Origin: an uncultured Pseudomonadota bacterium
GTDB taxonomy: Bacteria > Myxococcota_A > Polyangia > Fen-1088
Reading direction: 5' to 3'
DNA length: 64,000 nucleotides
NCBI GenBank assembly: GCA_963831685.1
Contig: CAWHRJ010000004.1
Coordinates: forward strand, 448,812-512,811
Shown: piece after piece, positions 12,696 to 42,694 of the stretch
How positions within the stretch are numbered: position 1 is the first letter of the stretch
Layout: each line of letters starts with the position of its first letter
The notes under the pieces: generated by a model
Database searches by the model: none
What the model was told of the DNA's origin: nothing
Seen by the model: the letters and a program-made list of their open reading frames with translations, nothing else
Made by a program: the position numbers and the translations under genes

Positions 12696-14309
12696 ATGCA
12701 AGGAAACAGAACCGGAAAGACATTGGCCCTGCTGGCCACGCTGGGCTTTGGGACCCTCGCCGCAGGCTGCGGCAATCAATCGGAGGGCGCGTCGCCGCCG
12801 AGCGTCGCGCAGCAGGGGGCCTCGGAGGTGATCGACAGCTTCGAGACCGGCAGCGCGGCGGCCTGGACGCCGTTTTCGACCGGCGGCTCCACGATCCACG
12901 CCGCCGACGCGACGGTCCACGCGGACGGCGCCGCGAGCTCGACCGAGCTCACATACGACGTGGCGGCTGCCGGCTCGGCGGGCCTCGAGCGTGACTTTTC
13001 GTCGCCGCAGGACTGGTCGGCCGCCCCGGGGCTCACCCTGTGGGTCAACGGCCGAAACACGGGCGACACCTTCCTGGTCCAGATCTACGACGCCGGCCAT
13101 GAACGCTGGGAGTCGCGCTTCAAGGTCGACTTCACCGGGTGGCGCGAGATCGCCGTCCCCTTCTCGGGCCTGACCGCAGCCGCCTGGCAACCCCAGGACG
13201 CGCGCGTCGATGGCGTGCAGGACTTCGGCGGCGTGACCGGAATGGCGCTCGTCCCGTCGGAGAGCCCAGGTTCCGGCCTCCTCGACCTCGACACGCTCGC
13301 GCTCGGAACGCTCGCCACGTCGTCGCCCCAGTCGGGCACCGGCGCCGGGCGGCCGACCACCACCCCGACCGCGGCGCCCACGACGTCGCCGGACCCGACC
13401 CCGGCCGTGACGCCGACGCCCTCGGCGGCACCGACCCCGCCTGCGGCCCCGACCGCGACGCCGGCCACTCCCACCACGCCGCCCACGACGTCGGCGCCGA
13501 CCGCGCCCGCGACGCCGACGGCGACGCCGGCCGCGACGCCGGCCGCGACGCCGACGGTGACGCCGACCGCGGCCCCGACTGCGGCACCGGCGACCGCTCC
13601 GACCGCGGCCCCGACGGCCTCCGCGCCGAGCGGTCCCGTCACCGGGACGATCATCCCGCTCTACACGTCGCCAGCGGATCCCTCCTGGGCCACGGTGGCG
13701 GCGGCCAAGGCCGCGCACCCCGCGGTACCGGTCCTGGCGGTCGTCAACCCATCGAACGGTCCGGGCGGCGCGGCGGCGTCTGAGTACGCCGCGGGTATCG
13801 CCAAGCTGGCCGCCGCCGGGGTGAAGGTGATCGGCTACGTCCACACCTCTTGGGGGGCCCGGCCCACCGCCGAGCTCCAGGCCGAGATGAGCCAGTGGAA
13901 GAGCTGGTACCCGGGCGTGAGCGGCATCTTCTTCGACGAGATGGCCAACCAGGCGGGGCAGGAGTCCTACTACGCGGGCCTCACGAGCTATGCCAAGGGC
14001 CACGGGTTCGATTTCACGATCGGCAATCCGGGCTCGGACTCGTCTCCGACCTACGTCGGGACCGAGGACGTGATCCTCATCTACGAGAACGGCGGCCTCC
14101 CGTCGGTGACGGCGCTCGGCGGCTGGCACGCGTCGTACCCGCGCACCAACTTCGGCGTCATCCCGTATGCCGTCGGCAGCCTCGACGGTTCGTTCATCCA
14201 GGCGGCGAAGCCGTACGTGGCTTACATCTATCTGCAGAGCGACAACCTGCCGAATCCGTGGGACAGCGTCCCGCCGTATCTCGCCGACCTGGTGGCTGCC
14301 CTCGGCTGA
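12696..14309 (+). CDS. Secreted lipoprotein: N-terminal carbohydrate-binding-like beta-sandwich, Pro/Thr/Ala linker, C-terminal spherulin-4-like (GH135-type) domain
   Basis: Lipobox LAAGC. The C-terminal domain reads IIPLYTSPADPSW...VLAVVNPSNGPG...GVSGIFFDEMAN, which matches my memory of the spherulation-specific family 4 / Sph3 family. Confidence 0.8.
   Translation: MQGNRTGKTLALLATLGFGTLAAGCGNQSEGASPPSVAQQGASEVIDSFETGSAAAWTPFSTGGSTIHAADATVHADGAASSTELTYDVAAAGSAGLERDFSSPQDWSAAPGLTLWVNGRNTGDTFLVQIYDAGHERWESRFKVDFTGWREIAVPFSGLTAAAWQPQDARVDGVQDFGGVTGMALVPSESPGSGLLDLDTLALGTLATSSPQSGTGAGRPTTTPTAAPTTSPDPTPAVTPTPSAAPTPPAAPTATPATPTTPPTTSAPTAPATPTATPAATPAATPTVTPTAAPTAAPATAPTAAPTASAPSGPVTGTIIPLYTSPADPSWATVAAAKAAHPAVPVLAVVNPSNGPGGAAASEYAAGIAKLAAAGVKVIGYVHTSWGARPTAELQAEMSQWKSWYPGVSGIFFDEMANQAGQESYYAGLTSYAKGHGFDFTIGNPGSDSSPTYVGTEDVILIYENGGLPSVTALGGWHASYPRTNFGVIPYAVGSLDGSFIQAAKPYVAYIYLQSDNLPNPWDSVPPYLADLVAALG
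13320..13634 (+). repeat. Low-complexity Pro/Thr/Ala linker-coding region (about 105 aa of PT/AP repeats)
   Basis: The translation is TTTPTAAPTTSPDPTPAVTPTPSAAPTPPAAPTATPATPTTPPTT...APTAAPTASAP. The DNA is iterated gcgacgccg/accgcggcc units. Confidence 0.8.
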
Positions 14310-16687: not shown

Positions 16688-17310
16688 CAGAAGAACTTCT
16701 TGTCCCCGAGATCGGTGCTGGGCGTCGACGTTTCGGATCGGCCGGCCAGTGCCGCCGCGGTCGCGCCGGCCGCCAGCGCCACGCCGATCGCCGTCCAGAG
16801 CCACCAGCGGCGCCAGATCGGCGTGGGGTGCTTGGCGGCCGTCCCCGCCGTCGCGCCCGACGCGGACGTGAGCCCGGCGGCCGGAACGAGTGGGGGTGCG
16901 GCCCGCAGGCCCTCGATCTCCCCGACCCGCCGCTCGGCGATGTCGCGATCCGGCCCGGCCGCGGCGCCCGCCAGGTAGCGCTCGTAATAGAAGAGCGCCT
17001 GTTCGGTCGCGCCGAGCTGGCGGTACGCCTCGGCGATCTGAAACAGGAACTGCGGATCGGCGCGCAGCTCGTAGGCCCGCCGGTACTCGGCGATGGCATC
17101 CTGGTAGCGCCCGAGGAGGTAGAGCCGGTGCCCCTGGGCGACGTGCTCTTCGACCTCGACGTCGGCCGGCGTGGAGGCGGCGGCCGACGTGGCGGCGTCG
17201 GGCGGGGCAGGGGGTGCGCTGCGCGCGGGCCTGGCCGCGAGCACGACGAACGCGAGCAGGAAAGCGAGCAAGAAAGCTCGAAGCGACGCGAGGGGTCTGA
17301 GGCTAAGCAC
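16687..17310 (-). CDS. TPR-containing, Pro/Ala-linker, single-pass membrane protein (cassette 1 anchor)
   Basis: GTG start and a signal/anchor. The TPR block reads HRLYLLGRYQDAIAEYRRAYELRADPQFLFQIAEAYRQLG...YYERYL. The C-terminal TM reads WWLWTAIGVALAAGATAAALA. It is homologous to the product of 34955..35850. Confidence 0.8.
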   Translation of the reverse strand: MLSLRPLASLRAFLLAFLLAFVVLAARPARSAPPAPPDAATSAAASTPADVEVEEHVAQGHRLYLLGRYQDAIAEYRRAYELRADPQFLFQIAEAYRQLGATEQALFYYERYLAGAAAGPDRDIAERRVGEIEGLRAAPPLVPAAGLTSASGATAGTAAKHPTPIWRRWWLWTAIGVALAAGATAAALAGRSETSTPSTDLGDKKFF

Positions 17311-17383: not shown

Positions 17384-19203
17384 TCAGCGCCGCCGCGGCT
17401 TGGAAGGAGTGCGGACGAGCACCGGCTCGAGCGGTGCCAGCGTCGCCATCCAGCGGTCGGCGACCGCCTGCGCGGCGGCGGCGAGCGGCGCCGGCGCGGC
17501 GGCGGCCAACGGCGCCGGAACGGCGGCCGCGAAGATCGACCGCGCGCTCTTTGCCAGCGCCGAGGAGAGCTTGGGGGCCTTCCCCTTGCCGCCGGCGAGC
17601 AGCGCCTCGAACGCCTTCACGTCGGCGGGGGCGAGCGGCCGGAAACGATCGGGCCGCGCCGCGCGCTTGGTTTCGCCCCCCGCGAGGAGGCGCGCGACGA
17701 GGGCCGTGCGGGCCAGCGTGCCGAGATCGAGCGCCGCCTCGTCCCCGCCGGTCCCTTCCAGCGCCGCTCCCCCAGGGGCGACGTCCTCGGTCGTCACGCC
17801 CAGGCCCCGGACCAGCGTCTGGGCGGCGGCCGCCTGCTCGACCGCGGCGGCGGCGCGCGCGAGGTCGGCGAGTCGTCGGAACGGCCGCTCGCCCCCGGCG
17901 GGCGGCTCGTCGAGCAGCCGGGGGAACATCGGGCGCAGCCGGGTGACGGCCTCCAGCACCGTTGCGTCGTCGGTCTCCGCGAGATCGAAGCCGCGGCGGC
18001 CGAACGGCCCGTCGCTACGTAGCGTGAGCGCCAGCTGCTTGACCTTGCCGACGAGGCTGACGCCCAGCCTGAAGAGCCGGCCGAGCGGGATGGTGCGCAG
18101 CGCTGCCGCGCCGCGCGCGTCGTCCCCCTGGGCGAGCCACTCGATCGCGAGATCGAGCGTGGCCACCAGCCGCTCGAGCACGGCGGACACCGCCTCGTCG
18201 TCGCCGGGAGTGACCGGTCGGCGGCGAGCACGCGGTTGGTGAGCGCCACCAGCGCGAAGTGCAGCTCGTCGACCTCGTCGCCGGCGGCGAGCTCCTGCGC
18301 GGCGCGCGCGAACGGCGACGCGTCGGTGTCGCCCAGCCGCTCGACCAGCGCCGTCGGCATGCGGAGGGCCGCGCCGTCGCCGCCGGGCTGGGCGTGCGCA
18401 CGTGGTTCGTGTCCGCGCCGCGCCTCGCCGATGCGCACGCTCGCCGGGTCGAGCTCGCGGTAGACCTCGAGCGCCTCGTAGTAGTCGGCGAAGCCGAGAT
18501 CCGCCATGCGCCCCTGGCGCCAGCGGTAGGCCGTCTCCTCGAGCTCCGAGTCGAGCTCGCCGGTAGAGCCGACCAGGAGCCGCCGCGCGAGGTCCAGGTC
18601 GGTCCGGTAGAGCGCGTCGACGAGCCGGATGAGCGCCCGCGCCGACATCGGGCCCTTGCTCTGCCCCCTCGGGCGCGCCTGCAGAACCGGCACGACGCCG
18701 CGACGTCGAGCACGAAGAAGCCGTCGGGCGTCGGGTAGAACGTCCCCTCGGGCTCGTCGGGCGGCTTCTTCCTGGGCGCAGATCGTAGATGCGGCTCGTC
18801 TTGCGCAGCAGCAGAGGCGCGAACGAGCTCGACGTCGAGCCCCGCGACCCAGCGCCAATCGTCTCGTACGGCGCCTCGGCCATCGCCTCGAGCCACTCGG
18901 CGAGCGCGCGCGGGCGCGACCTGGTCGCGCTCCCACAGCGCGAAGTCGAGCACCACCTGCAGCTGCTCGGCGCGTCGCTGCGGCGAGGATGTCGCCCGCG
19001 TCGCGCGAGGCCCATCTCGTGCATGACGTAGTAGAGCTCGTCGCCGGGCAGCGCGCGGACCGCCGCGCTCGGGGTCGGGGCCCTCGAGCAGGGCGTCGGC
19101 GCGGCGCAGCTTGCGCCCGCGCCCGAGCTGCGCGCGGTAGCGCGACAGGGCGACGACGTTGTCGGGCTCGGAGGCGGTCGGGCAGGGCTTCGGGCGGTGC
19201 CAT
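17384..19203 (-). pseudogene. Conserved hypothetical protein (about 600 aa) with the reading frame broken many times
   Basis: Protein-like segments are spread over three minus-strand frames (track ORFs 17384..19714, 17794..19203, 18015..18956). Examples are ALPGDELYYVMHEMGL, VLDFALWERDQVAPARA, LAEWLEAMAEAPYETIG, TFYPTPDGFFVLDVAA and ALIRLVDALYRTDLDLARRLLVGSTGELDSELEETAYRWRQGRMADLGFADYYEALEVYRELDP. The last about 270 aa (17384 to about 18200) are intact in one frame. Confidence 0.6.
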
Positions 19204-20489
19204 GAGTCATCATATACGCGATAAGCTCACGCGCTCGATGCTCTCGACGGTTCTCCGCACGATCCGCACGCACGCGCTCGTCGCGCCCGGCGATCGGGTG
19301 ATCGTCGCCGTGTCGGGCGGGCCCGACTCGATGGCGCTGCTGCACGCGCTGTGGGAAGCGCGCGATCGGCTGGGGCTGACGCTGGAGGTGGCGACGGTCG
19401 ACCACGGCCTGCGCCCCGAGGCGCGCGCCGAGGGCTGGCGCTGGTCCGTGCGCGCGCCCAGGCGCTCGGGCTGCCGTGGCACGCGCCTCGCCGTCGACGT
19501 CGCGGCGCGCGCAAGCGCGGTCCCTCGTGGCAGGACGCCGCGCGCCGCGTGCGCCTCGGCGCGCTCGAGGCGCTCGCGGCGCGAGCGGGGCGCGCGCGGA
19601 TCGCGCTCGGCCACCAGGCCGACGATCAGGCCGAGACAGTGCTGTTCCGCGATCGTGCGCGGCACCGGCCTGCCGGGGCTCTCCGGGATCCCGTACCGCG
19701 CGCGGGCCGTTCATCCGCCCGCTGCTCGACGTCCGCGCGCCGGAGGTGCTTCGCTACCTCGCGCGGCGGAGCATCCCGTTCGTCGAGGATCCCTCGAACG
19801 CCGACCCGCGCTTCGCGCGCGCGCGCGTTCGCCATCGCTACCTGCCGCTGCTCGCCGAGGAGAACCCGCGCGTCGCGAGGCGCTCGTCGCGCTGGCGGCG
19901 GCGGCGCGCGGCGCGCCCGCCGCGCGCCGACGTGATCGCGACGCTGCCGCGGCGGGTGCGCCGCCGCGGTCGGCCGGCTGCGCGCGCGCGGCGGGACGGC
20001 CGCGGTCGATCTGTGGGCGGGCGGCGTCGTCGAGATCGCCTACGGTCAAGTCCGCGATCCGGCCGCGCGACGCCGGCCGGGCGGCGGCTGCACGCGCCGC
20101 CGAGCTGCTCATCCCCGGTCCGGGCGCCTACCGCTGGGCGGCCGGGACCCTCGACGTGCGGGAGGCGGCGGCCGGGCGAGGGGGGCGCGCGGGCGTGGGA
20201 GGCTCGGCGGAGTTCGACGCCGACGGCTCGACTGGCCGCTCGCGCTGCGGGCCCGCCGCCCGGGCGACCGCATGCGTCCGCGCGGCGGCCGCGGCAGCCG
20301 CAAGCTCTCCGACCTGCTCATCGACGCCAAGGTCGCCGCGCGCCGCCCGCGACGCGCTGCCGGTGCTCACGACGGCCGACGACGTCGTGCTGTTCGTGCC
20401 GGGGCTGCGCTCCGGCGGAGGCGCCCGTCCGGACGGAGACACCCGCCGCCTCGTGCGGCTTCGGTTCGACGTTGACCGCCGATACATGA
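19202..20489 (+). pseudogene. tilS: tRNA(Ile)-lysidine synthetase TilS with multiple frame breaks; 3' end uncertain
   Basis: The PP-loop VIVAVSGGPDSMALLHAL is in frame 1. Further segments appear in other frames: LGLPWH / SWQDAARRVR...IALGHQADDQAETVLFR / RPLLDVRAPEVLRYLARRSIPFVEDPSNADPRFARARVRHRYLPLL / RKLSDLLIDAKV / LPVLTTADDVVLFVPGLR (track ORFs 18629.., 19351.., 19476.., 20272..). Confidence 0.85.
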
Positions 20490-29337: not shown

Positions 29338-29618
29338 ATGACGCGCGAGATCATCGTGAGCATCCTGGAAGGCGAGGGGGCGGAAGGAAAAGGGGGAGCT
29401 TCAAGATCCCCGAGGCCCGCGAGGCGACCTGCTTCATCTCCAGCCCCGGAGAGATCCTGGGGGTCGCTCGCGTCATCAAGGTCGAGCTCAAGGATCAGTT
29501 CCTGACGCTCGCGACGACGAAGGATGAACGCTTCGTCTTCGCCTACGCCGACGTGCTGGGGTTCAAGCTCGCCGCGCCCGCGCAAGGCAAGGACCGCGCC
29601 GCCGGGTTCGGCCGCTAG
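29338..29618 (+). pseudogene. Small conserved-looking protein (about 93 aa), one frame break in an A/G run
   Basis: MTREIIVSILEGEGAEGK from ATG 29338 joins GSFKIPEAREATCFISSPGEILGVARVIKVELKDQFLTLATTKDERFVFAYADVLGFKL... (the tail of track ORF 27468..29618). The junction falls in ggaaggaaaagggggagc, about 29385-29397. Confidence 0.5.
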
Positions 29619-30517
29619 CGCATCGACATCGACCAGCTGGCGATCGTCTTGCTGCCGTTGAACTTGGGGAACATCGGCATGCGCGAGAGGACGCAGCTGG
29701 CGAACCCGCCCTTCTGACCATTCACCTTCACCGCGGAGACCTTGCCGGTGCCGCGCACGACGAAGTCGAGGCTCATCTCGCTGAGGCCCGGGTTGTGCTT
29801 TCGCTCGGCCATGAGGCAGGGAACGAGGCCCCGGTAGTGGTGCATCATCGACTCCTCGATGACGCCGTCGTCGAGGGTCTCGTCGCCCGCGCTGGCGAAC
29901 TTCGAGGCGTCGCCGATGTTCGTGTCGTTGCTGAACTCCCCGTCCTCGGCTTTCGAGCCGCTGGCGTGGTGGCCGCTGCCGCGCTTGGCGACGTGCGCGC
30001 TCTGGAAGCTCAGCTTGACGTCCTTGAGGAACGCGTCGACCTCGGCCTCCTCCTCGCGCGACGCCAGCTTGGTCTCGTCTGTCGCCTTGCGCGTCATGAC
30101 GTAGAAGCCGACGCCGCCCGCCGCCACCAGCAGGAAGACGATGCTGAACAAGAACGTCGCCGCGCGCTTCTTCTTCTCGGTGCTCTCCATCGTCTGCTCG
30201 GCGGTCGCGCGCCGCTTCTGCTCGCGGCGGCGCTCCGCGGTCTTGGTGAACTCGCCCAGCGCCGGGAAGTCCTTCACCTTCTTGCGCGCGCCGGTGTCGC
30301 TGTCGACGATCATGTGCTCGCCGATGATCTCGCCGCGCGCGATCTGCGCGCGGATTTGCGCCAGCGAGAACGGCCCGAAGTCGAGCTTGTCCTTCTGGAT
30401 GAGCCAGCGCTCCTGGGTCTCGTCGACGACGCCGCCCGCCGCCTCGGCGACGTTGAAGGCGTGCCCGAGCGAGCTGCGCGGCGGCGGCGCCGCCGGGGGC
30501 TCGACCGACTGCTGCAC
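29615..30517 (-). CDS. GYF_2-domain / TM / C-terminal beta-domain protein, probably the C-terminal half of the upstream kinase-like gene
   Basis: The GYF-type motif is WLIQKDKLDFGPFSLAQIRAQIARGEIIGEHMIVDSDTG. A K/R-rich stretch is followed by the TM FLFSIVFLLVAAGGVGFYVM. The frame stays open upstream of the annotated GTG. Confidence 0.7.
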   Translation of the reverse strand: MQQSVEPPAAPPPRSSLGHAFNVAEAAGGVVDETQERWLIQKDKLDFGPFSLAQIRAQIARGEIIGEHMIVDSDTGARKKVKDFPALGEFTKTAERRREQKRRATAEQTMESTEKKKRAATFLFSIVFLLVAAGGVGFYVMTRKATDETKLASREEEAEVDAFLKDVKLSFQSAHVAKRGSGHHASGSKAEDGEFSNDTNIGDASKFASAGDETLDDGVIEESMMHHYRGLVPCLMAERKHNPGLSEMSLDFVVRGTGKVSAVKVNGQKGGFASCVLSRMPMFPKFNGSKTIASWSMSMR

Positions 30518-31422
30518 GGCGGCCTGCCGGGCCGCGACGTTCGCGCCGTGGCCGCTTGGGACGGGGCGGCGGCCGGCGCGCCGTTGGCAGCAGGCTGGGC
30601 CAGGGCGGCGGCGAGCGCGTCGCGCAGCTCCATCGGCGAGGCGAAGCGGGCCGCGGGATCCTGGGCGAACGCCGCGGCCAGGATGGAGTCGACGATGGGG
30701 GGGACGTCTGCCGCGACCTGCGAGACCGGCGTGAACGGCGTCGACGGGAGGCGGCCGGTGACGACCTCGTAGAGCATGACCCCCAGCGAGTAGACGTCGG
30801 AGGCCGTGGTCGGCGCCGCCCCGGCCAGCACCTCGGGGGAGCAGTAAACGTGGTCGGGGGCGCCGCTGGGCGCGCCGCGCCGGGCCAGCGCCGGGACGGT
30901 GCGCGAAAGGCCGAGGTCGGCCACCTTGACGCGCCCGGCCTTGTTGACCCAGATGGCCGCCGGGTTGAGGCCGCCGTGGGGCATGAGGCCGGCCGCGCTC
31001 TCGAGGCCGTTCGCCACGTGCGTGATCAGGTTGCAGGCGCCCTTGAAGGAGACGTTGCGCCCCTCGCGCCGTTTGCCGTCGATGAAGTCGCGCAGCGTCT
31101 GGCCGTCGAGCAGCTCGGTGGCGATGAAGTAGTAGTCGGCCTCGCGGCCGACGGTCAGCACGTCGATCAGGTTCTTGTGGACGAGGGCGCTGGCGTTCTC
31201 GATGTCGGTCACCAGCTGCGCGGCGGCGGGGCCCAGCGTGCGCAGCGAGATGACACGGACCGCGGCGGGGCCGCGCCGGTTGGCGTCGGTCGCCCGATAG
31301 GTCTGGCTGACAGAATCTTGACCCAGGAGGGCGTCGAGCCTGAACCGGCTGCCAACGACGGCGCCGGCTTGAAACTGCCCGGCGGGGGCCGACACGGCGA
31401 GCGAGTCACGTGCGGGGGCCAT
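30310..31422 (-). CDS. Ser/Thr-kinase-like domain protein with degenerate catalytic motifs (predicted pseudokinase); the last about 90 codons look out of frame
   Basis: The kinase fold is recognisable (ATELLDGQTLRDF, KVADLGLS, SPEVL, DVYSLGVMLYE). However the HRDLKPxN motif reads HGGLNPAA, VAIK reads AVRVI, and there is no Gly-rich loop. The tail is R/S-rich and overlaps the GYF ORF. Confidence 0.7.
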   Translation of the reverse strand: MAPARDSLAVSAPAGQFQAGAVVGSRFRLDALLGQDSVSQTYRATDANRRGPAAVRVISLRTLGPAAAQLVTDIENASALVHKNLIDVLTVGREADYYFIATELLDGQTLRDFIDGKRREGRNVSFKGACNLITHVANGLESAAGLMPHGGLNPAAIWVNKAGRVKVADLGLSRTVPALARRGAPSGAPDHVYCSPEVLAGAAPTTASDVYSLGVMLYEVVTGRLPSTPFTPVSQVAADVPPIVDSILAAAFAQDPAARFASPMELRDALAAALAQPAANGAPAAAPSQAATARTSRPGRPPCSSRSSPRRRRRRAARSGTPSTSPRRRAASSTRPRSAGSSRRTSSTSGRSRWRKSARRSRAARSSAST

Positions 31423-31485
31423 GCGAGGTCGACGACTTTATCAAAAAATGGGTACAAACCGAAGCCGCACGGCAGCGGCCCTGAT

Positions 31486-33792: not shown

Positions 33793-34818
33793 CTACCCCT
33801 TTTTGCCCTTGCCGCCCTTGCCGCCGCCGCCGGTGGCCTTGGCCAGCTTGGGCGAGACCATCACGCGCTCCTTCGGCAGGAACGACAGCGCCGCGGTGTA
33901 CGTCTTGGTCTTCTGTTGCTCCTGATCCTTCATCGCGCCCTTGTCGTCGGTCTTGTGCAGGCCGATCTTGGCGAAGGTGATCGCCGCGTAGGAGGCGATC
34001 GTCTCCTGCACGTTCGACAGGTGCTGGTCGAACTCCTGGCGGGTGACGGTGATCTTCAGGACCGGCTGATCGTCGAGCAGGCCGGTGTACGTCACCTGCT
34101 GCAGCTCGGGCGCCTTGGCGAACATCGTCGTCAGGAACTCCGCCCAGTAGGTCATCGCGCTGTTGAACGACAGCGTCTTCTCGTACTCGTCCTTGCCGCT
34201 CTCGAGATAGGGGTACGTCACCTCGACGGCCTTGTGGGGCTCATCGACGGTCATGGTCGGCTTGTGTTTGAAGTTGTCGTCGACGTGCGCGATCTTCTTC
34301 TTCTCCGCGAGGTGGCAGGTGTCCTCGAGGTCCTCGACCTCGCCGCGGTTCAAGCTGTGCATGAACGCCTTCTGCACCTCCTCGGCGAACAGCAGCGGGA
34401 TGGCGTTCTCGCACTTCGGCCCCTTGTCGCCGTGCTCGCGCCAGATCTTGGCCACCGGGTTGCCGCCGGTCTGGGCCTCCCCCTCGGTCTTGTAGAACGC
34501 GCCCAGGAAGGTGGTCGGCTCGAACGTGTTGCGCGTCATCGCGTAGCGATAGAGGAACTGCAGCGCGGGGTAGATCTGGTCGCGCTTGGTCGGCTGCTTC
34601 AGCGCGACGTGGATCTTCACGTCCTGACCGTCGGTCGGGCCGCTGACCTCGTCGCGGATGACCGTGAACTGCGGGATGCCGGCCGGGATCTTCGGCTGAT
34701 CGCAGCAGGTGGTCGGCGCGGCGGCCTTTTCAGTCTGGCAGGACGACAGGGAGAGCAGGGCGCAGAGGGGCACCCCGGCGAGAACCACAACGCTACGCGG
34801 CAGTTTCTGAGATCGCAT
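33793..34818 (-). CDS. Hypothetical lipoprotein with Gly/Lys tail
   Basis: ATG sits 5 nt after GGAGG. Lipobox LSLSSC. The composition is K/E/T-rich with more A/T-ending codons than its neighbours. The C-terminus is ATGGGGKGGKGKKG. Confidence 0.7.
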   Translation of the reverse strand: MRSQKLPRSVVVLAGVPLCALLSLSSCQTEKAAAPTTCCDQPKIPAGIPQFTVIRDEVSGPTDGQDVKIHVALKQPTKRDQIYPALQFLYRYAMTRNTFEPTTFLGAFYKTEGEAQTGGNPVAKIWREHGDKGPKCENAIPLLFAEEVQKAFMHSLNRGEVEDLEDTCHLAEKKKIAHVDDNFKHKPTMTVDEPHKAVEVTYPYLESGKDEYEKTLSFNSAMTYWAEFLTTMFAKAPELQQVTYTGLLDDQPVLKITVTRQEFDQHLSNVQETIASYAAITFAKIGLHKTDDKGAMKDQEQQKTKTYTAALSFLPKERVMVSPKLAKATGGGGKGGKGKKG

Positions 34819-34913
34819 CCGATCCTCCTCGAAGGTGACGCGGAACGTACCTCAACCCGCCGGCCTCAGGTGTCTTTCTTTCCAACCGGGTCGGGGTAGG
34901 GTATTGTACGTGG

Positions 34914-34940
34914 CCGGAGCTGATGCAGCTTCAGCTCCGG
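34914..34940 (+). promoter_or_regulatory. Perfect 10-bp stem / 7-nt loop hairpin CCGGAGCTGA-TGCAGCT-TCAGCTCCGG, 14 nt upstream of the ATG at 34955
   Basis: Read directly from the sequence. Confidence 0.4.
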
Positions 34941-34954
34941 GCTAAATCCATAAA

Positions 34955-35850
34955 ATGGCATCGAATGTCATGACGCGGCGACCTCGTCCATTCGCGCTGC
35001 TTTTTTCGATGATTCTGCTCTGCCTCGGGGCCAAAGAGGCGCGCGCGCAGCTGACGCCGCAGCAGAAACAGGACATCCACGTCCACTATCAGCAGGCGAC
35101 GCGCGCCTACGACCTCGGCAAGTACCAGGAGGCCGTCGACGAATACCAGAAGGTCTACGAGATCGACGGCGATCCGGTCATGCTCTACAACATCGGGCAG
35201 GCGTATCGGTTGAACGATCAGCCGCAAGAGTCGATTCACTTTTACCGGCGCTACCTGCAGCGGTCGCCCGAGGCGAGAAACCGCGACGACGTCGAGCGGA
35301 AGATTGCTTCGCTGGAAAGACTGATCGAGGAGCGCCGCAAGGCGGCCGCCGCGGTCGCGCCGCCGCCGCCCAAGAAGGAACCGCCGCCGCCGCCGCCCAA
35401 GGTCGAGGCGCCGCCGCCGCCGGTGGTCACACCGGTCGTGGTGGCGCCGCCGCCCCCGCCGCCACCGGAGCCGCCGTCGACCACGCGGCGGGTGGTCGGC
35501 TGGTCTATGATCGGCGTCGGCGTGGCGAGCGGCGTGGTCGCGGTCATCGAAGGGGTCAACGCCAAGAACAAGGGCGATCAGCTGACGCAGAACTCGATGA
35601 TGACGACAAACGGGATGATCCGACGTTCGACGCCAACCAGCAGTCCCTCCAGTCGGAGGGCAAGACCGCCAACATCGTCGCCATCGTTTGCGGCATCGGC
35701 GGCACGGCGCTGGCCGTGACCGGAGCAATCATCCTCATCACCAACGGCTCGTCGTCGAGCGACGCGCCGCCCACGTCGACGACCAGCGTCAGCTTCACCC
35801 CCTGGCTGGCCCCCGGACTGGTCGGCGGAGGAATGGGGTTGAGGTTCTAG
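34955..35850 (+). pseudogene. TPR / Pro-rich linker / membrane protein (cassette 2 anchor), one frame break near 35588
   Basis: The TPR block reads ATRAYDLGKYQEAVDEYQKVYEIDGDPVMLYNIGQAYRLN...FYRRYL. A PPPPPK linker and a TM follow. After ...GDQLTQ the protein-like continuation is in another frame: DDPTFDANQQSLQSEGKTANIVAIVCGIGGTALAVTGAIILITNG...FTPWLAPGLVGGGMGLRF, with the stop at 35848-35850. Confidence 0.75.
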
Positions 35851-35853
35851 ACC

Positions 35854-36888
35854 ATGCGATCGGCGCAGGTCCTGGCCGTCCGCGCGGCTCTGCTGGGCCT
35901 CGTGCTGGCGGGCACGGGCTGCTTTCGCCCAAAGATTCTGCCGGGCGGCTTCGCCTGCGGCGACGCCGGCGCAGGCGTCAACGGTATCTGCCCTGACGGC
36001 CTCCTCTGCGACCCGAGAAGCGGCACCTGCGTCTCGTCGATCGGTGGCGCCGGCGGTGGCGGGACGGGTGGCGCTGCGGGCAAGGGTGGGCAAGGCGGCC
36101 AGGGAGGCGGCAAGGCCGGCATGGACGGCGGCGTGCGCGACATGGCTCCGGACGTTCCCGTCACCTGCCTTCCGTCAGTGGCTACGACGACCTGTCCGGC
36201 GAGCGACGCCGGAACGGGGATGTGTGATCCGGTTTGCAACACCGGCTGCGGCCAATGCAACGAGAAGTGCTCGGTGAATACGTCGGGCAATCTCACCTGC
36301 AACATTCCAACAGGCGGAGGGACTGTCGGGTTGTCGCAGCCATGCAGTCCAAGCAAGTCCGGCGCGGCCCAGACCGACAACTGCGCGCCCGGCCTGGTCT
36401 GTCTCAACGTTTCCGTCTGCCAGTACCGCTGCTATCAGTTCTGCCGGACCAGCGCCGACTGCAGCAACGGAGCAGGCTGCTCGCGCGACGCCGGTGGCGG
36501 CTATTCCTTCTGCGACGTTCCCCAGACGACCTGCGACCCCATCTTGGGTGCGCAGAAGATCGGGTGCCCGGGTCCGCCCCTGTTCACCTGCTACCTGTCG
36601 TCGACTACTGACCAAACCGTCTGCGATTGTCAGACCGGTATGACCTCCGGCGCTGTGGGCGCTTCCTGTACGCGTTCCCGAGACTGCTTTGCGGGCCTCA
36701 TCTGTATCGACTTCCAGGGGAACGGCAGCAAGTTTTGCAAGAAGGTCTGTCGTCTTCCGGGTGACGGTGGCGTCAACCTGACGAACGCCGACGCGGGCGA
36801 AGAGGGCTGTGTCGACTACCGGAATTGCCTCCCGATCGTGCTGCCGAGCGGAACCAACGACCCGACTTACGGCTACTGCAACGAGTAG
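35854..36888 (+). CDS. Cys-rich secreted lipoprotein (cassette 2, copy A)
   Basis: ATG sits 3 nt after the upstream stop. Lipobox LAGTGC is followed by FRPKILPGGFACGD. It has a Gly-rich linker and more than 30 Cys, and ends in TYGYCNE. Confidence 0.8.
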   Translation: MRSAQVLAVRAALLGLVLAGTGCFRPKILPGGFACGDAGAGVNGICPDGLLCDPRSGTCVSSIGGAGGGGTGGAAGKGGQGGQGGGKAGMDGGVRDMAPDVPVTCLPSVATTTCPASDAGTGMCDPVCNTGCGQCNEKCSVNTSGNLTCNIPTGGGTVGLSQPCSPSKSGAAQTDNCAPGLVCLNVSVCQYRCYQFCRTSADCSNGAGCSRDAGGGYSFCDVPQTTCDPILGAQKIGCPGPPLFTCYLSSTTDQTVCDCQTGMTSGAVGASCTRSRDCFAGLICIDFQGNGSKFCKKVCRLPGDGGVNLTNADAGEEGCVDYRNCLPIVLPSGTNDPTYGYCNE

Positions 36889-36899
36889 GAGCGGCGACG

Positions 36900-37751
36900 G
36901 TGGCGAATCTCCGTCGTCTTGCGTTCGCTGTGCTCGCCATGGCGGCCATGGTCGGTTGCTACAGCCCGAACATCACGCCGGGAGGGTTCAGGTGCGGTGA
37001 CGGCAGCGCGTGCCCGGACAAGTTTCGCTGCGCGGCGGATGGACGCTGCTATCGGGAAGACATGGACGCCAGCCTCGACATCGCGGTGGACAGGCCGCCG
37101 GTCTGCACGTCGGTGACCTCGATTTCGACGCCGGTCTGTGCGAGCGGAGCCGTCGGCGGGCAGTGCAACCCGAGTTGCCAGACCGAATGCGGCGGGTGCG
37201 GTTGGTGTTCGGTGGTTGCGGGCGCGTCCAAGTGCCTGATCGGAACGGAAGGGGCAAATGACGTCGGGGCGGTCTGCGATCCGATCAGCTCGACCATCTC
37301 GACCAGCTGCAAGGCGGGGCTCTACTGCCAGCCGGAGTGCGGCGATACGACGGGCCGTTGCTACAGGTTTTGCTCGCAGGACAACAAGGATTGCGGATCG
37401 GGGTTGACGTGCACCGTGAACCTGCGGCAGGTAGGCGGCGCGGCGCCGATGGGGCAGTTCTTGCTCTGCACTCTCGCGTCGGCGACCTGCGACGTCGTCG
37501 GAAAAGCGGACTGTCCAGCGCCTTATGCCTGCTACCCGTTCGGAGCCCAGCAGACCGAGTGTGATTGCGCCGGAACGGCCAACACCGGCGAGCCTTGCGG
37601 GCCCGGCGTCAGCTGCGTTCCCGGCGACTGGTGCGTTCAATTCGGTGCCACTGGCAACAGCACCTGTCTTCAGGCGTGCAACGGTTCGGCGGACTGCACC
37701 ATGGGCGGCACGTGCAGTAATCCCGGAACGAAGTACGGCTACTGCATGTAG
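36900..37751 (+). CDS. Cys-rich secreted lipoprotein (cassette 2, copy B; paralogue of 35854..36888)
   Basis: GTG at 36900 sits 8 nt after AGGAG. Lipobox AAMVGC is followed by YSPNITPGGFRCGD, and the protein ends in KYGYCM. It shares Cys spacing with copy A. Confidence 0.8.
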   Translation: MANLRRLAFAVLAMAAMVGCYSPNITPGGFRCGDGSACPDKFRCAADGRCYREDMDASLDIAVDRPPVCTSVTSISTPVCASGAVGGQCNPSCQTECGGCGWCSVVAGASKCLIGTEGANDVGAVCDPISSTISTSCKAGLYCQPECGDTTGRCYRFCSQDNKDCGSGLTCTVNLRQVGGAAPMGQFLLCTLASATCDVVGKADCPAPYACYPFGAQQTECDCAGTANTGEPCGPGVSCVPGDWCVQFGATGNSTCLQACNGSADCTMGGTCSNPGTKYGYCM

Positions 37752-37817: not shown

Positions 37818-38033
37818 TCAGGTGACGCGACGGGCTCGACGGGCCAGGTCTTCGAACGCGATCATGTCCTCGAGGTAGCGGAGCCGCTCCGAAGGACTGA
37901 GGCGCAGCCGCGCTGCGATCTGGCTCCGCTCGTCGGCGGATATCGGTGCTCTGCTCGTCGGGGCCGTCTCACCGCCGCTTGCCCGCGGCTCGGCCGGCTG
38001 GTGAGGCGGGTTGGTGGACCCCGGAGAGCTCAC
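37818..38033 (-). CDS. Small ORF (71 aa) downstream of and overlapping hepT; unknown function
   Basis: The GTG overlaps the hepT stop (GTGA). The N-terminus is Pro-rich and disordered. The C-terminus is helical (ERSQIAARLRLSPSERLRYLEDMIAFEDLARRARR). Codon bias is only moderate. Confidence 0.35.
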   Translation of the reverse strand: MSSPGSTNPPHQPAEPRASGGETAPTSRAPISADERSQIAARLRLSPSERLRYLEDMIAFEDLARRARRVT

Positions 38034-38340
38034 CTGACGCCGAATCGCTGGGCGATGACGGCGGCAAGCGTCCGAAGATCGTCGAGCCTGGTCGTGACGA
38101 TGCTCTCGAGGATACGCGGATCGATCGTCTGGTAGTTGTGGACCGCGAGGTTGCGGAAGCCGACCATCTTGCGCAGGCGGCCGGCGAGGGCGGGATCGAG
38201 CACACCGTGCTGCTCGAGCAGCGAGAACGTCTCGGCCACCCCGCTCGGCAGTCCGTAGCCCTCGGTCGCCACGACGTGAGCGGCGAGGTCGATCGCGGCC
38301 TGAGCGGCCCGCGTGAGGCTCAGGACGGTGATGTCCTTGC
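38030..38340 (-). CDS. hepT: HepT (DUF86/HEPN) toxin, conserved core; 5' end unresolved
   Basis: The RX4HXY motif appears in FRNLAVHNY, and the upstream helix is AAQAAIDLAAHVV. The frame is open into mntA but has no start codon upstream of GTG 38272. A HepT-like N-terminal helix (VRRTIEETILRRI) lies in the mntA frame, so an indel near 38335-38345 is likely. Confidence 0.8.
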
Positions 38341-38727
38341 GATCCGTCTCAGGATGGTCTCCTCGATCGTCCTTCGCACCAGCCTGAGCTCCTCGTAGCG
38401 ATCGGGGAGGCGCGTGAGGAACTCGATCCGGCGCCGCGGCGCGCGGTCGGCGACCAGACGGCCCGTCTTGATCGCCTGGTGGGCGATGATCGGCGACGCC
38501 ACGTCGAGGTCCACCACGTCAACCGGCCGGCCGACAAGCTGTTCCAGGTCCGCACGCGCGTCGAGCAGCTTCGTGCCGTCGGGGCGGTTGTGGAAGAGGA
38601 CCGCCAGGTCGATGTCCGAGTCGGCGCGCGCACCTCGAACCTGCGATCCGAACAGCCAGGCGGCGTCCACGCCCCATCGGCGGTCGAGATCCTCGACGAT
38701 CGCCGCCACCGCGTCGTTCAGCTCCAC
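38320..38727 (-). CDS. mntA: MntA-type minimal nucleotidyltransferase antitoxin
   Basis: The pol-beta NTase signature is LFGSQVRGARADSDIDLAV...VDVVDL. GTG start. It lies directly upstream of hepT. Confidence 0.85.
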   Translation of the reverse strand: MELNDAVAAIVEDLDRRWGVDAAWLFGSQVRGARADSDIDLAVLFHNRPDGTKLLDARADLEQLVGRPVDVVDLDVASPIIAHQAIKTGRLVADRAPRRRIEFLTRLPDRYEELRLVRRTIEETILRRIARTSPS

Positions 38728-38801: not shown

Positions 38802-39684
38802 TTGGGGCCCATGTCGTCGCCGCCGTCCGCCACGCTCCCGCGGTTCGCGTTCCTGACGCCGCGCACGCTGCCGCCGGCGTCGAAGATCGAGGGGCGGGTG
38901 GCGGTGCTCGACATCGCGTTCGCCAGCGAGGGGGGCGGGGCGTCGTTCGAGAAGACGACGCTCCCCTTTATCAAAGGACTGGGCGGTCGCCTCGCGGCGT
39001 GGGTCGATCACCACGACCACGACCGCCACGTCGACTACAAGGACGATCCGCGCTTCGTGCTGACGACCAAGGCGGAGCACGGCGCCTGCCCGGAGATGGT
39101 GACGCCCGAGGTGGTTCGCGCCGCCGGGCCGGTCGACACGGTGGCGATGCACCTCGATCTCGACGGGATCTACTCGGGCGCCAAGTGGGTGCTGGGCGGC
39201 GTCGAGCCGTACGAAGGGCGCCGACGCCGACGCGCGCGCCGTCGACACGCGCCGCGGCGAGCCGGGGCCGATCGGGAACGCGCATCGATCGCGCGCTGCG
39301 GGCGCGGTTTCGCGACGAGACGCTCAAGCACCGGGTCATCCAGTACCTGGTGGCGCGCGCGAAGGCGCCGGTGCTGTGGGAGCGAGATCGAGGAGGCGGC
39401 GCGCGAGATCGACCCGCTGCTCGACGAGGCCGAGCGGCTCGCGGAGCGCTACCAGATGCGTCGACGGCGTCGCCTACGTCGAGGCGCGGGGGCGGCCGTA
39501 CGACAAGACGGAGCTCCTGCTGCTCGGGCAGGAGCGGGCGCCGGTGGCGGTGGTGCGCGACTCGGGCTCGCTGACGATCGCCGCCGACTTCGAGTCGGGG
39601 CTTCGACTTCGTGAAGCTGTTCGACCTCGGCGGCGGGATGCCGACCCGGGTGACGTCCCCGAGGCACGCCGCACCGAGGTCATG
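38802..39684 (+). pseudogene. Hypothetical protein (HHDHD-containing N-terminal domain) with the frame broken repeatedly; 3' end uncertain
   Basis: The first about 135 aa are intact (…WVDHHDHDRHVDYKDDPRFVLTTKAEHGACPEM…). Later protein-like pieces lie in other frames: IDRALRARFRDETLKHRVIQYLVAR, SEIEEAAREIDPLLDEAERLAERY, VDGVAYVEARGRPYDKTELLLLGQERAPVAVVRDSGSLTIAADFESG. Confidence 0.45.
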
Positions 39685-39753
39685 ACGCAAGCTGGCGGCC
39701 GCGGTCGCCGCCCGCGCGCGGCCGCCGCGGCGGCGTCGGTGTAAGCTCCGGCC

Positions 39754-40662
39754 ATGGCCACGCCGCCGCCAAACCCCAGCGAATCCCGGCACGCACGTCG
39801 GCGCTCGCGGCGCGCGTCCTGTCGGCGGCCGGCGGGCATGCGCGCCGGGCTGGCGTCGGAAGGGCCGCTCCCGTCGCGCCGCGACATCGCGCGCGCTGGT
39901 CGAGGAGCTGCTCGAGGTGCTGTTCCCGGAGTCGCACCGGCTCGGCACCGACGGCGGCAGCCTGCAGGACCACGTCGCCGCGACGATCGGGTCGCTCGAG
40001 GCGCACCTCGAGACGGCGATCTACCTGGGCCTGCACCGGCTCTGCGGCAACAGGGACCGGGCGCGGTGGCACGCTGCGCCAAGCGCGCGCGCGCGACTCA
40101 CCGCGCCGCCTGCTGGAGGCGCTGCCCGACATCCGCGCGGCGCTGGCAAGGACGTGCTGGCCGCGTTCGAGTCGCGACCCGGCGGCCACCGGCATCGACG
40201 AGATCGTCGCCTGCTACCCGGGCCTCTACGCCATCGCCGTCTACCGCGTCGCGCACCATCTGCTGAAGCGACGGCGCGCGAGGTGGTGCCGCGCATGCTG
40301 ACCGAGCACGCGCACTCGCGCACCGGCATCGACATCCACCCGGGCGCGACGATCGGCGAGTCGTTCTTCATCGACCACGGCACCGGGCATCGTCGTCGGC
40401 GAGACCTCGCCGATCGGCAACCGCGTGCGCATCTACCAGGGCGTGACGCTGGGCGCGCTGTCGATCCGCGACCGCGGCCGCGCCGACAGGCTCGGGCCCG
40501 GGGAAGCAGCGCCACCCGACGATCGAGGACGACGTGATCATCTACGCCAACGCGACGATCCTGGGCGGCAACACCGTGATCGGGCAGGGCGCGATCGTGG
40601 GCGGCAACGCCTGGATCACCTACTCGGTGCCGCCGGGCATCCGGGTCGGCGTGGGGACCTAG
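39754..40662 (+). pseudogene. cysE: Serine O-acetyltransferase (CysE/EpsC type) with multiple frame breaks
   Basis: Segments are spread over three frames: [91 protein letters not shown], and the hexapeptide tail [34 protein letters not shown]. The stop is at 40660-40662. Confidence 0.8.
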
Positions 40663-40689: not shown

Positions 40690-41960
40690 CTTCTGCGCGA
40701 GCGTCTCGGCGCAGATCCTCGAGACCCAACGGCCGATCCGGGTGCTGCGCCTCGTCGCCTGGGGCGAGGAGGTCGAGCGCGAGCTTCTTCGCGGCCGCGG
40801 CGCGCGCGAGCTGCCGCGGCCCGAGTACCGGATCCCGCCCGAGGTCGCCGAGGCGGGGGCGCGCTTTCGCGCGCTCAAGGCGCTGGTCCCCGGGTCGGGC
40901 GCGATCGAGATCTTCCTGCGCGAGACCTGCGACGCGTTCGCCACCGCGGCGCGCATGCTGGCCGCGGTCGGCACGCAGCGACTTCTACTATCACTCGGTC
41001 GAGCTCTACGGGCGCCCCGCCAGCCTGACGGCCGATCGGCGGACGACCAACCTGGATCTGGCGCAGCACTTCCGCCGCGTCGTCGACGGCGTGGCGGGCG
41101 CGGCGCGCCGATCCCCAGCCCACCGGACGAGCTACTGCTACGACGCCGAGGAGGTGGTGCCGCTGCTGGCGCGCGCGGTTCGCGGCGTTCTTCCCCGGCC
41201 AGCAGATCGGCGTCGAGGTCGTCGACGGGATCGCCGCCAAGGCGGTGGCCGGCGTCGACGGCGTGCGGATGCAAGCGCGGGCGCGGTTCTCGCCGCGCGA
41301 TCTGGCGCAGCTCGAGTTCCACGAGGGACACGTCCACGTGGCGACGGCGCTGAACGGGCGGGCGCAGCCGGTGATGCCGTTCATCGGGCTACCCGTCGCC
41401 GCGCACGACCGGCGACGCAGGAGGGGCTGGCGGTGTTGACGGAGTTCCTGACCCAGTCGACCAGCATCGATCGCCTGCGGCGCCTCGCCGACCGGACGCT
41501 GGCGATCAAGATGGCCGAGGACGGCGCCGATTTCTGCGAGCTCTATCGCTTCTTCCGCGAGCGCGCGACACGACGAGACGAGCGCGTACGACAGTGCGCG
41601 GCGGGTCTGCCGCGGCGGGCTCTGTCGCCGGGCGGCGCGCCGTTCACCAAGGACGTCTGCTACCTGGACGGCCTCCTGCGGGTGACGAACTTCATGCGCG
41701 TGGCGCTGGTCAAGGGTCACCTCGGCGACGTGCCGCTCTTCTTCGCCGGGAAGATCGCCGTCGAGGACGTCCCGCTGTTCGGGCGCCTGCAGCGCGAGGG
41801 GTTGGTGCGGTCGCCCGAATACTTGCCCGCGTGGGCGCGCGATCTCTCTTACCTCACGGCGTTCATGAGCTACTCGGCTTTTCTCGGCGAGTGCGACCTC
41901 GACGCCGAGCGCCGACGCTACGAGGATCTCATGACGCGGGCCGAGGGCGAGATGGGATGA
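40690..41960 (+). pseudogene. DUF1704 / QEGLA-motif protein (flavohemoglobin expression-modulating family) with multiple frame breaks; start uncertain
   Basis: TQEGLAVLTEFLTQSTSIDRLRRLADRTLAIKMAEDG contains the QEGLA motif. Also present are FHEGHVHVATALNG and the tail APFTKDVCYLDGLLRV...LSYLTAFMSYSAF. The pieces lie in track ORFs 40425.., 40742.. and 41245... Confidence 0.7.
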
Positions 41961-42694
41961 GCCCCATCAGCCGGGCGCCCAGCAGCACCGTCGCCAGGCA
42001 GGCCCACTGCGCCGGGGTCAGCCCCGCGTAGCGCTGGTCGGGGAGTGCGACGTCGGTCGCGCGCAGGAAGTCGAGGCCGAACCGAACCGGCGCGTACATC
42101 ATCGCCGCGAGACCAATGACGTGGCCCGGCGGGCGCGGCTTGCGCGCGTAGGCGAAGAGGATCGCGGTCATGACGATCGTGAAGAGGAGCTCGTCGAGGC
42201 CGAGATCGTGGCGCGGACCGTCGGGGAAGCGCACGGCCAGGAAGAAGTCGGTGTGGCGGCCCGGGTGATCGTGCGCCGTGAAGCAGCCGGTCCGCCCGAA
42301 GATCCACCCGACCGAGAGGCCGAGCGCGACCGAGTCGGCGTACGCCAGTCGGTCGATCTTCTCCTTCTTGCGTGTAGTAGAGAAACGCCAGGAGCGCGCC
42401 CAGGAAGCCGCCAAACGACGAGAGCCCCGACCAGACGTTGAGCAGCACCAGCGGGTTCTGCTTGATGCGCTCCGGGAAGTAGAAGATCACCGACACCAGG
42501 TGGGCGACGATGAAGCCGCCGATCACGATCCGCGCGTTCAGGAAGCGGACGTCCTGCGCATCGAGGCCGCGCTTGGCCCCCTGCGCGACCACGATCCGGT
42601 CGCCGACGATCACGCCGATCGCGACCAGCACGCCGAACATGTGAATCGGGATCGACCCGATGTCGAACAGATGTCCGTTGAAGTACGGAATCAT
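41929..42694 (-). pseudogene. lgt: Prolipoprotein diacylglyceryl transferase Lgt, one frame break near 42369-42372
   Basis: The N-terminal half is MIPYFNGHLFDIGSIPIHMFGVLVAIG...WSGLSSFGGFLGALLAFLYYT. The C-terminal half, in ORF 41929..42414, is KKEKIDRLAYADSVALGLSVGWIFGRTGCF. The ATG overlaps the lipA stop (ATGA). Confidence 0.85.

Follow-up and report, generated by a model that had tools for sequence, protein, structure and literature searches.

The stretch of DNA analysed here (the window, 64,000 nt; contig CAWHRJ010000004.1, positions 448,812 to 512,811, of assembly GCA_963831685.1) comes from an uncultured soil bacterium of the GTDB lineage Myxococcota_A, Polyangia, Fen-1088. It has a G+C content of 70% and its closest public relatives are metagenome-assembled genomes (MAGs) of Microflora Danica labelled Polyangia bacterium or uncultured proteobacterium. 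Between 34955 and 37751 lies cassette 2, which encodes a tetratricopeptide repeat (TPR) protein with a predicted membrane anchor (anchor A2), followed by two cysteine-rich lipoproteins (L1 and L2). A prior description of this locus, made without database searches and called here the sequence-only reading, had proposed a recurrent envelope module that pairs an inner-membrane TPR anchor with disulfide-rich outer lipoproteins. We compared the genes of cassette 2 with profile and structure libraries, the pairing with other genomes and metagenomes, and the lipoproteins with those of close relatives.

The three genes of cassette 2

Cassette 2 is a tightly packed three-gene operon of anchor A2, L1 and L2. 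The parts of the anchor were delimited from its sequence and from an AlphaFold2 model of an orthologue (P0121), to which the helix and residue numbers below refer.

34879-34907, + strand: promoter-like element TTTCCA-17 nt-TATTGT upstream of the anchor gene, aligned in 19 orthologous loci
34955-35047, + strand: predicted type I signal peptide of anchor A2 (MASNVMTRRPRPFALLFSMILLCLGAKEARA/Q; ...KEARA/Q), read from the sequence (helix 11-28)
35048-35356, + strand: predicted periplasmic TPR head of anchor A2, with two Pfam TPR motifs and five helices including a capping helix
35357-35491, + strand: proline-rich linker of anchor A2, about 45 residues, read from the sequence (disordered, residues 135-174)
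35492-35602, + strand: first hydrophobic helix of anchor A2 (VVGWSMIGVGVASGVVAVIEGV) and the start of a short loop, ending ...NSMM (helix 175-213)
35603-35625, + strand: frame break, 23 nt (ATGATGACGACAAACGGGATGAT), one base short of whole codons, across which reading shifts from the 34955 frame to that of 35626
35626-35850, + strand: remaining loop, second hydrophobic helix of anchor A2 (35665-35739), conserved tail ...VSFTPWLAPGLVGGGMGLRF and stop (helix 229-267; tail of low confidence)
35854-36888, + strand: lipoprotein L1, 344 aa, 35 Cys, ATG start; signal peptide 35854-35919, lipid Cys and four-Cys N-terminal module (N-module) 35920-36030, Gly-rich linker ~36031-36153, hypervariable Cys-rich domain ~36154-36885
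36900-37751, + strand: lipoprotein L2, 283 aa, 35 Cys, GTG start behind AGGAG; signal peptide 36900-36956, lipid Cys and N-module 36957-37049, linker ~37050-37103, hypervariable Cys-rich domain ~37104-37748

The stop codon of the anchor (TAG, 35848-35850) is followed after a 3-nt gap by the ATG of L1 at 35854, as the sequence-only reading had placed them. The gap between L1 and L2 is 11 nt and includes an AGGAG that overlaps the L1 stop, with GTG 36900 sitting 7 nt downstream; the sequence-only reading had given the second paralogue this start, and the public protein P0002 uses it too. The earlier assignment of 34955-35850 to a single anchor gene did not stand at the level of open reading frames (ORFs), the frame from 34955 stopping at 35719. 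The anchor start at ATG 34970 (MTRR...) is conserved in all orthologous loci, while ATG 34955 is confined to close relatives. The TTTCCA-17 nt-TATTGT element occurs once in the window, is conserved across all 19 orthologous loci compared and is probably the promoter of the anchor gene. It matches 8 of 12 consensus positions and hence went unflagged by a consensus scan for promoters and terminators, which returned nothing useful for cassette 2. After this element, in the probable 5' untranslated region of the anchor, lies a perfect 10-bp inverted repeat at 34914-34940 (CCGGAGCTGA...TCAGCTCCGG); the hairpin was not significantly more stable than shuffled sequence (z = -1.2).

The 23-nt stretch that is short by one base lies between a TCG (Ser) codon and a CCG. 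In a tblastn comparison with an intact orthologue, the match ran to 35602 in one frame (92% identity) and continued from 35626 in another (79%), and the frame of third-position G+C (GC3) switches at the same 35602-35626 break. A cassette decaying in this genome, in which the break would be a real mutation and the anchor a pseudogene, agrees with a frame change located inside this gene and with the intact reading frames of all 120 listed anchor orthologues. Against decay, orthologues from short-read MAGs (queries from loci L003 and L010) reveal frame changes in at least five further conserved genes within 29.6-42.7 kb, including a Ser/Thr kinase, a class IV aminotransferase and genes close to 39.8-40.7 kb and 41.9-42.7 kb; the Microflora Danica MAGs to which the window is most closely related were assembled from Nanopore reads only; and both halves of the anchor retain high GC3 and 79-92% identity to orthologues. 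Because nearby conserved genes are broken likewise and the relatives' MAGs are Nanopore-assembled, the break in A2 is most likely an indel of long-read assembly, and a pseudogene was judged unlikely given the frame changes in its conserved neighbours. These frame changes in several conserved genes also make ORF-based gene calls in the window unreliable. The sites concerned are 29618-31425, ~32945, 35603-35625, ~39217-39690, ~40387-40489 and ~42365-42369 (kinase, aminotransferase, anchor and three others).

Anchor A2 belongs to the TPR repeat proteins by matches above curated Pfam cut-offs (TPR_2, 40.9 bits against 27; TPR_1, 33.1 against 27.8; TPR_8, 32 against 25.7) and by the helical repeat fold of the model. 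The model of P0121 (mean predicted local distance difference test score, pLDDT, 78) placed TPR residues 35-134 at pLDDT 96-98, followed by the disordered Pro linker, a helical hairpin (175-213, 229-267) and the low-confidence tail. Foldseek of this model returned generic 3-TPR peptide-binding modules only (top match, consensus 3-TPR proteins), the YbgF TPR domain and BamD. The C-terminal part of A2 had no match in Pfam, NCBIfam or PADLOC. The 120 listed orthologues are 274-343 aa long with 58-89% identity, and the closest relative has an identical TPR head (100% at the amino-acid level).

L1 and L2 both have a basic N-region, an uncharged hydrophobic region and a lipobox Cys within approximately the first 35 residues, the features by which a lipoprotein was recognized. 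The lipobox signal peptides, read from the sequence, are MRSAQVLAVRAALLGLVLAGTG-C23 in L1 (...LAGTG-C23) and MANLRRLAFAVLAMAAMVG-C20 in L2 (...AAMVG-C20), and these features are conserved in 44 and 39 aligned homologues, respectively. The two proteins are true paralogues, with 31% identity by BLASTP (E = 6e-17) and 32 aligned cysteines. The motif C-[FY]-x-P-x-I-x-PGGF-x-CGD after the lipobox, the Cys spacing and the C-terminal YGYC that the sequence-only reading had seen in both were all recovered, the C-termini being YGYC(NE/M). The Cys-rich domain itself spans ~215-245 residues. A word-indexed search returned 119 relatives of L1-like (~330 aa) and L2-like (~275 aa) size, all annotated as hypothetical proteins, and a profile search of 1.84 billion cluster representatives gave 2664 matches at E <= 1e-3, 655 at E <= 1e-10 and 115 at E <= 1e-30. 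The invariant columns of this family, across 93 diverse members, are nearly all cysteines, and long members carry two or three tandem copies of a ~200-residue Cys-rich domain behind a single N-module.

No match to L1 or L2 was found in Pfam, NCBIfam or PADLOC, and the DUF4215 and Myxococcus cysteine-rich repeats (PF13948, TIGR02232) matched neither protein. Sequence and profile searches against the PDB gave noise only, stemming from Gly-rich linkers; the best profile match (E = 0.01) was with unrelated proteins and covered the Gly-rich linker of L1. In the AlphaFold2 model of L2 (mean pLDDT 75), the lipid Cys is followed by a small hairpin module, then by a linker that is disordered and a domain rich in beta hairpins; the best Foldseek match of this model in the PDB was at E = 0.92, the weak top matches being double-knottin toxins, IGFBP-N and Dickkopf modules. 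None of the known small disulfide-rich folds considered (knottin/ICK, IGFBP-N, Dickkopf, EGF) matched L1 or L2 significantly by structure or profile, and long family members gave sub-threshold Dickkopf_N, EB and Lustrin matches only. The L1/L2 family and the C-terminal region of the anchor are described by no curated library.

Recurrence of the anchor-lipoprotein pairing

A second pair, cassette 1, lies on the opposite strand of the window.

16687-17310, - strand: anchor A1, of the paralogous anchor type, with signal peptide, TPR, Ala/Pro linker, one hydrophobic helix and a tail ...TDLGDKKFF
14345-16690, - strand: lipoprotein L3, ~780 aa, 91 Cys, with an N-terminal beta domain followed by DUF4215 repeats

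The homology that the sequence-only reading had drawn between the TPR blocks of the two anchors was recovered at 36% identity over 84 aa (E = 6e-19), and A1 precedes a Cys-rich lipoprotein as it had stated, its stop codon overlapping the start of L3 (TGATG). L3 had been counted with L1 and L2 as one of three Cys-rich proteins. Paralogy of all three was rejected: L3 consists of DUF4215 repeats (36.6 bits; cut-off 27) and has no real similarity to L1/L2, the best BLASTP match between L1 and L3 being at E = 0.04. Orthologues of A1 are present in loci L012-L017. A DUF6178 protein (~608 aa; 17384-19714, - strand), split between frames in the window, stands directly upstream of A1 in the A1-type loci checked (including L013-L017).

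Among species-representative genomes, each of the nine A2-type anchors precedes an L1-like gene, with an L2-like gene as well in eight cases and the ninth contig ending inside L1; an L3 orthologue comes after six of the seven A1-type anchors. These loci sit in a broadly syntenic region, and A2-type and A1-type therefore count as one lineage each, so that nine of nine stands for one syntenic lineage and not nine. Both L1 and L2 were kept in all 21 loci long enough to hold them. A metagenome scan with a diverse anchor alignment added 80 loci. Over genomes and metagenomes together, and counting loci with downstream sequence (two generic TPR matches left out), a lipobox gene starts at the anchor stop in 77 of 79 anchor-like loci, with a median of 72 nt from the stop to the lipobox Cys. 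The same lipobox expression was positive in 23% of 295 other ORFs at these loci, a value inflated by a conserved, divergently transcribed lipoprotein. The proposal of a recurrent anchor-plus-lipoprotein module thus extends beyond this genome, the partners falling into 14 clusters by their C-terminal region. Two findings had been named in advance as telling against it, namely anchors usually standing without an adjacent gene and Cys-rich proteins belonging to an already characterized family; neither was borne out, as 77 of the 79 anchors have their lipoprotein, and L1/L2 have no Pfam, NCBIfam or PDB match.

The part common to the partners is the module next to the lipid. Class I partners (the L1/L2 type) carry the pattern C-[FY]-x-P-x-I-x-x-GG[FL]-x-C...C-P-x-G-[FY]-x-C next to the lipid Cys, with four Cys in ~35 residues, and class II partners (the L3 type) have a beta domain without Cys in this position. 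Ahead of a class I partner, every one of the 45 anchors has two predicted hydrophobic segments (39 anchors) or three (6 anchors) together with a tail ending ...F; ahead of a class II partner, a single helix with a tail of ~19 aa is found in 22 of 31 anchors. The architecture of the anchor therefore co-varies with the N-terminal module of its partner. The payloads behind these N-modules comprise the Cys-rich domain of L1/L2, DUF4215 repeats, LVIVD, FG-GAP, Kelch and RCC1 propellers, a lectin-like domain and a PL11 rhamnogalacturonan lyase (544 bits). Among these are several domain types that act outside the cell or on external substrates. Disulfide richness, which the sequence-only reading had taken as the unifying feature, did not hold across the partners: many carry just 1-6 cysteines, with propellers or the PL11 lyase.

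Anchors with class I partners share a tail that resembles two strands, ...V-S/A-F/L-x-P-W/L...G-x-x-G-G-x-x-L/A-R/Q/T-F-COOH (35740-35847 in the window and in related loci). This tail bears a likeness to the C-terminal signal of outer-membrane barrel proteins, yet it stands behind two very hydrophobic helices. In one sublineage (loci L046, L049, L066 and L068) the class I lipoproteins have Asp at position -1 of the lipobox (...LVAD-C-Y-K-P...), which is unusual for a lipoprotein signal peptide.

Divergence within L1 and L2, and the surrounding genes

Compared with the closest relative (locus L002), the nucleotide identity of the window is 92-98% on both flanks and falls to 65-80% across 36.0-37.5 kb, with the 3' end of L2 unalignable. 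The trough over L1/L2 is repeated in many other genome pairs. Divergence at fourfold sites was measured between the window and L002 at codons of identical residues. The sites differing made up 8-22% in the flanking genes, 8% in the anchor TPR head, and 18% and 16% in the signal peptide plus N-module of L1 and L2, respectively, compared with 53.5% for the remainder of L1 and 58.4% for that of L2; the last two values are near saturation. In four additional pairs, some of them between JGI metagenome contigs, the flanks gave 12-21% and the domains 44-67%. The Cys-rich domains thus diverge several-fold faster than their surroundings at silent and replacement sites alike, with the boundary inside each gene. 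Near-saturated synonymous divergence between genomes with flanks of ~94% identity, as here, usually marks recognition or evasion loci.

Two artefacts were considered as causes of this island and rejected. Cys-rich composition does not produce it, as cassette 1 with its Cys-rich L3 has no island (21% versus 2-16% fourfold difference; L3 is not hypervariable). Nanopore error does not produce it either, as the JGI metagenome contig pairs show the same island. The dN/dS of L1/L2 is 0.24-0.29, and domain identity tracks flank identity over long distances (Spearman 0.83-0.89). Allele exchange, or diverged alleles that have persisted for long, would explain the island better than positive selection on the whole genes, the alternative being a local mutational cause. 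It provides a marker for strain-level diversity in uncultured soil Polyangia. The GC3 of L1/L2 is ~0.77-0.85, compared with 0.86-0.98 in neighbouring genes, and the dip lies in the segments of the divergence island.

The gene upstream of cassette 2 is transcribed divergently from the anchor gene.

33793-34818, - strand: 341-aa lipoprotein with a Lys/Gly-rich C-terminus

This lipoprotein lies upstream of the anchor in 32 related loci with 75-95% identity, and its fourfold divergence of 8.8% places it with the best-conserved genes in the region compared. It had no Pfam, NCBIfam or PADLOC match and may or may not belong to the module, synteny being the link between them. On the other side, 38030-38727 (- strand) encodes a HepT-like RNase (79 aa, covering profile positions 53-118 only and probably truncated) and an MntA-type nucleotidyltransferase, which form a toxin-antitoxin pair; the pair is absent in L002 and present in L010 and is therefore a small insertion just downstream of L2. 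Two further genes, which related loci have retained, show no evident connection with the cassettes; they encode a CBM_11 plus Spherulin4 protein (12696-14309, + strand) and the C-terminal part of a MATCAP-like (PF08014) protein (41433-41960, + strand).

A possible display module and its relation to known systems

As a tentative favourite among the readings, held at somewhat less than even confidence, we propose that the three genes of cassette 2 together encode a display module of the cell envelope, in which the anchor docks or escorts its cognate surface lipoproteins. What we infer of the contact between its proteins, their location, the direction in which the anchor acts and its biological role is as follows. 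The anchor would be exported via its type I signal peptide and, as sequence and model predict, be held in the inner membrane by the C-terminal helical hairpin, with L1 and L2 as the predicted outer lipoproteins. Its small TPR head, of the peptide-binding type, would be carried on the poly-proline stalk of ~45 residues, which may be long enough to cross the periplasm. Each lipoprotein has three parts, comprising the conserved four-Cys mini-domain after the lipid Cys, a flexible linker and a Cys-rich, probably all-beta domain. The anchor may bind the conserved membrane-proximal module of its cognate lipoprotein or lipoproteins and act as a dedicated docking or escort partner that places them at the outer membrane or cell surface, where the Cys-rich domains could serve as exposed, variable recognition or shielding surfaces.

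Speaking for this proposal are the close coupling of the genes, the recurrence of the pairing with 14 partner clusters, the co-variation of anchor architecture and N-module, the payloads of extracellular type at other loci, the anchor model with its stalked TPR head, the retention of both paralogues and the divergence island. Several points weigh against it. Binding of the anchor to the lipoproteins is a postulate, and no anchor-lipoprotein fusion was seen among the long family members examined, which have tandem Cys-rich domains instead. The case for surface exposure of L1/L2 comes indirectly, from the payload types at other loci and from hypervariability. Class I loci whose anchor is of the A2 type all represent a single orthologous, syntenic locus, and the independent lineages number ~14, not 77. 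The dN/dS of L1/L2 argues against gene-wide positive selection, and their raised synonymous divergence is a further point that the proposal does not account for. One anchor per lipoprotein is unusual for a catalytic sorting factor and fits a stoichiometric partner better, which bears on the choice between escort and tether. Finally, the anchor copy in the window is frame-broken. A broader version of the display module, which we offer as a speculative possibility, is that the anchors and the two N-modules constitute an undescribed, Myxococcota-wide surface-lipoprotein system with a stalked docking partner for each cassette, of which L1/L2 would be hypervariable members with deep alleles kept by recombination or balancing selection for cell-cell, phage or prey recognition.

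The best-placed rival, which we nevertheless consider doubtful, is that the genes are co-transcribed and otherwise independent, the TPR protein being a general conserved envelope factor and L1/L2 fast-evolving, weakly constrained lipoproteins that share its promoter. Such independence would account for a TPR head that is 100% identical where L1/L2 are ~65% identical, for the synteny of the entire region in related genomes and for the lack of any known domain connecting anchor and L1/L2. It is at odds with the retention of the pairing across ~14 partner lineages with unrelated payloads, with an anchor architecture that follows the partner's N-terminal module and with stop and start codons that overlap or almost touch; in addition, the cysteines are all invariant, which argues that L1/L2 are not decaying.

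A second rival, a polymorphic kin-discrimination or toxin cassette akin to the sitBAI genes of Myxococcus, is suggested by analogy and appears improbable. These genes encode an accessory protein (SitB), a lipoprotein toxin (SitA) and an immunity protein (SitI); sitB overlaps sitA, has a type I signal sequence and raises the transfer of SitA (PMC5562445, PMC8546572). SitB is a predicted beta-barrel without detectable homology or domain (PMC5562445), whereas the anchor here has TPRs and helices. The conserved N-terminus of L1/L2, their deeply diverged C-terminal domain and the intragenic boundary between them would suit such a cassette. However, L1/L2 have no toxin or nuclease domain (Pfam, NCBIfam) and no immunity-like gene is present, L1 being followed by its paralogue L2 and then by syntenic core genes. 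The C-terminal domains are also one homologous scaffold and not swapped unrelated modules, and the site is a fixed chromosomal one and not a mobile element.

An envelope-stress sentinel in the manner of RcsF-IgaA or NlpE-CpxA, in which an inner-membrane partner would monitor the folding or trafficking of disulfide-rich outer-membrane lipoproteins, agrees with the predicted topology of a periplasm-spanning inner-membrane protein and Cys-rich lipoproteins. It is the least probable of the readings: the anchor helices are joined by just a ~30-residue loop with no signalling domain, many partners are not Cys-rich and hypervariability is unexpected of a sensor.

Literature searches returned no described system of TPR plus Cys-rich lipoproteins in myxobacteria. 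The means by which lipoproteins are delivered to the diderm surface and retained there are known for few lineages (Slam in Neisseria, an export signal in Bacteroidota, and Borrelia), a list that essentially leaves out Myxococcota, which rely on surface and exchanged lipoproteins for social life and predation. The recurrent cassette, each lipoprotein of which has a conserved lipid-proximal module and its own TPR partner, offers a concrete, testable handle on how lipoproteins are placed at the surface.

By analogy, the module would work most like Slam with its adjacent surface lipoproteins or like SitB with SitA, although the defining features of both are missing here. Slam of Neisseria and other Proteobacteria is an envelope protein with a periplasmic TPR domain encoded beside one or more lipoproteins, and the same adjacency was found in cassette 2; the anchor partners also include proteins that must act outside the cell. 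Against the Slam TPR domain (PF24575, TPR_Slam) anchor A2 scored 21 bits (E = 4.5e-4), below the 35.2-bit cut-off. Unlike Slam, A2 has no DUF560 14-stranded barrel (no Pfam match C-terminally) and carries a Pro-rich stalk and a predicted helical hairpin instead, and whereas Slam is one translocon for several substrates, here there is one anchor per lipoprotein cassette.

The resemblance to sitBAI, from the same phylum, lies in an upstream accessory gene with a signal peptide that overlaps or abuts the lipoprotein gene, and in a lipoprotein with a family-defining N-terminal part and a variable C-terminal part. The N-terminal module is ~35 residues here compared with ~375 for the escort domains of SitA, and beyond the missing toxin domain and downstream immunity gene, no similarity to sitBAI proteins was found in the profile libraries scanned. 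The accessory protein here is likewise different in kind, with TPRs and putative membrane helices in place of a predicted barrel.

TonB and TolA have inner-membrane anchoring, as is predicted here, and a long Pro-rich spacer that carries a binding domain toward the outer membrane, and one anchor orthologue is labelled TonB by automatic annotation. In contrast to both, the order is reversed in the anchor, with the binding head N-terminal and the membrane segment C-terminal; there was no TonB_C match, and no ExbBD or TolQR genes were found among the annotated genes of locus L001 or the window genes scanned.

TraA is a polymorphic Cys-rich surface receptor of myxobacteria with a PA14-like variable domain, Cys-rich repeats and a MYXO-CTERM tag, and its partner TraB has an OmpA domain. 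L1/L2 have no homology to TraA, are N-terminally lipidated by prediction and vary in the Cys-rich domain itself. What they have in common with TraA is that each is a Cys-rich Myxococcota protein of cell-surface type with alleles strongly diverged between close relatives.

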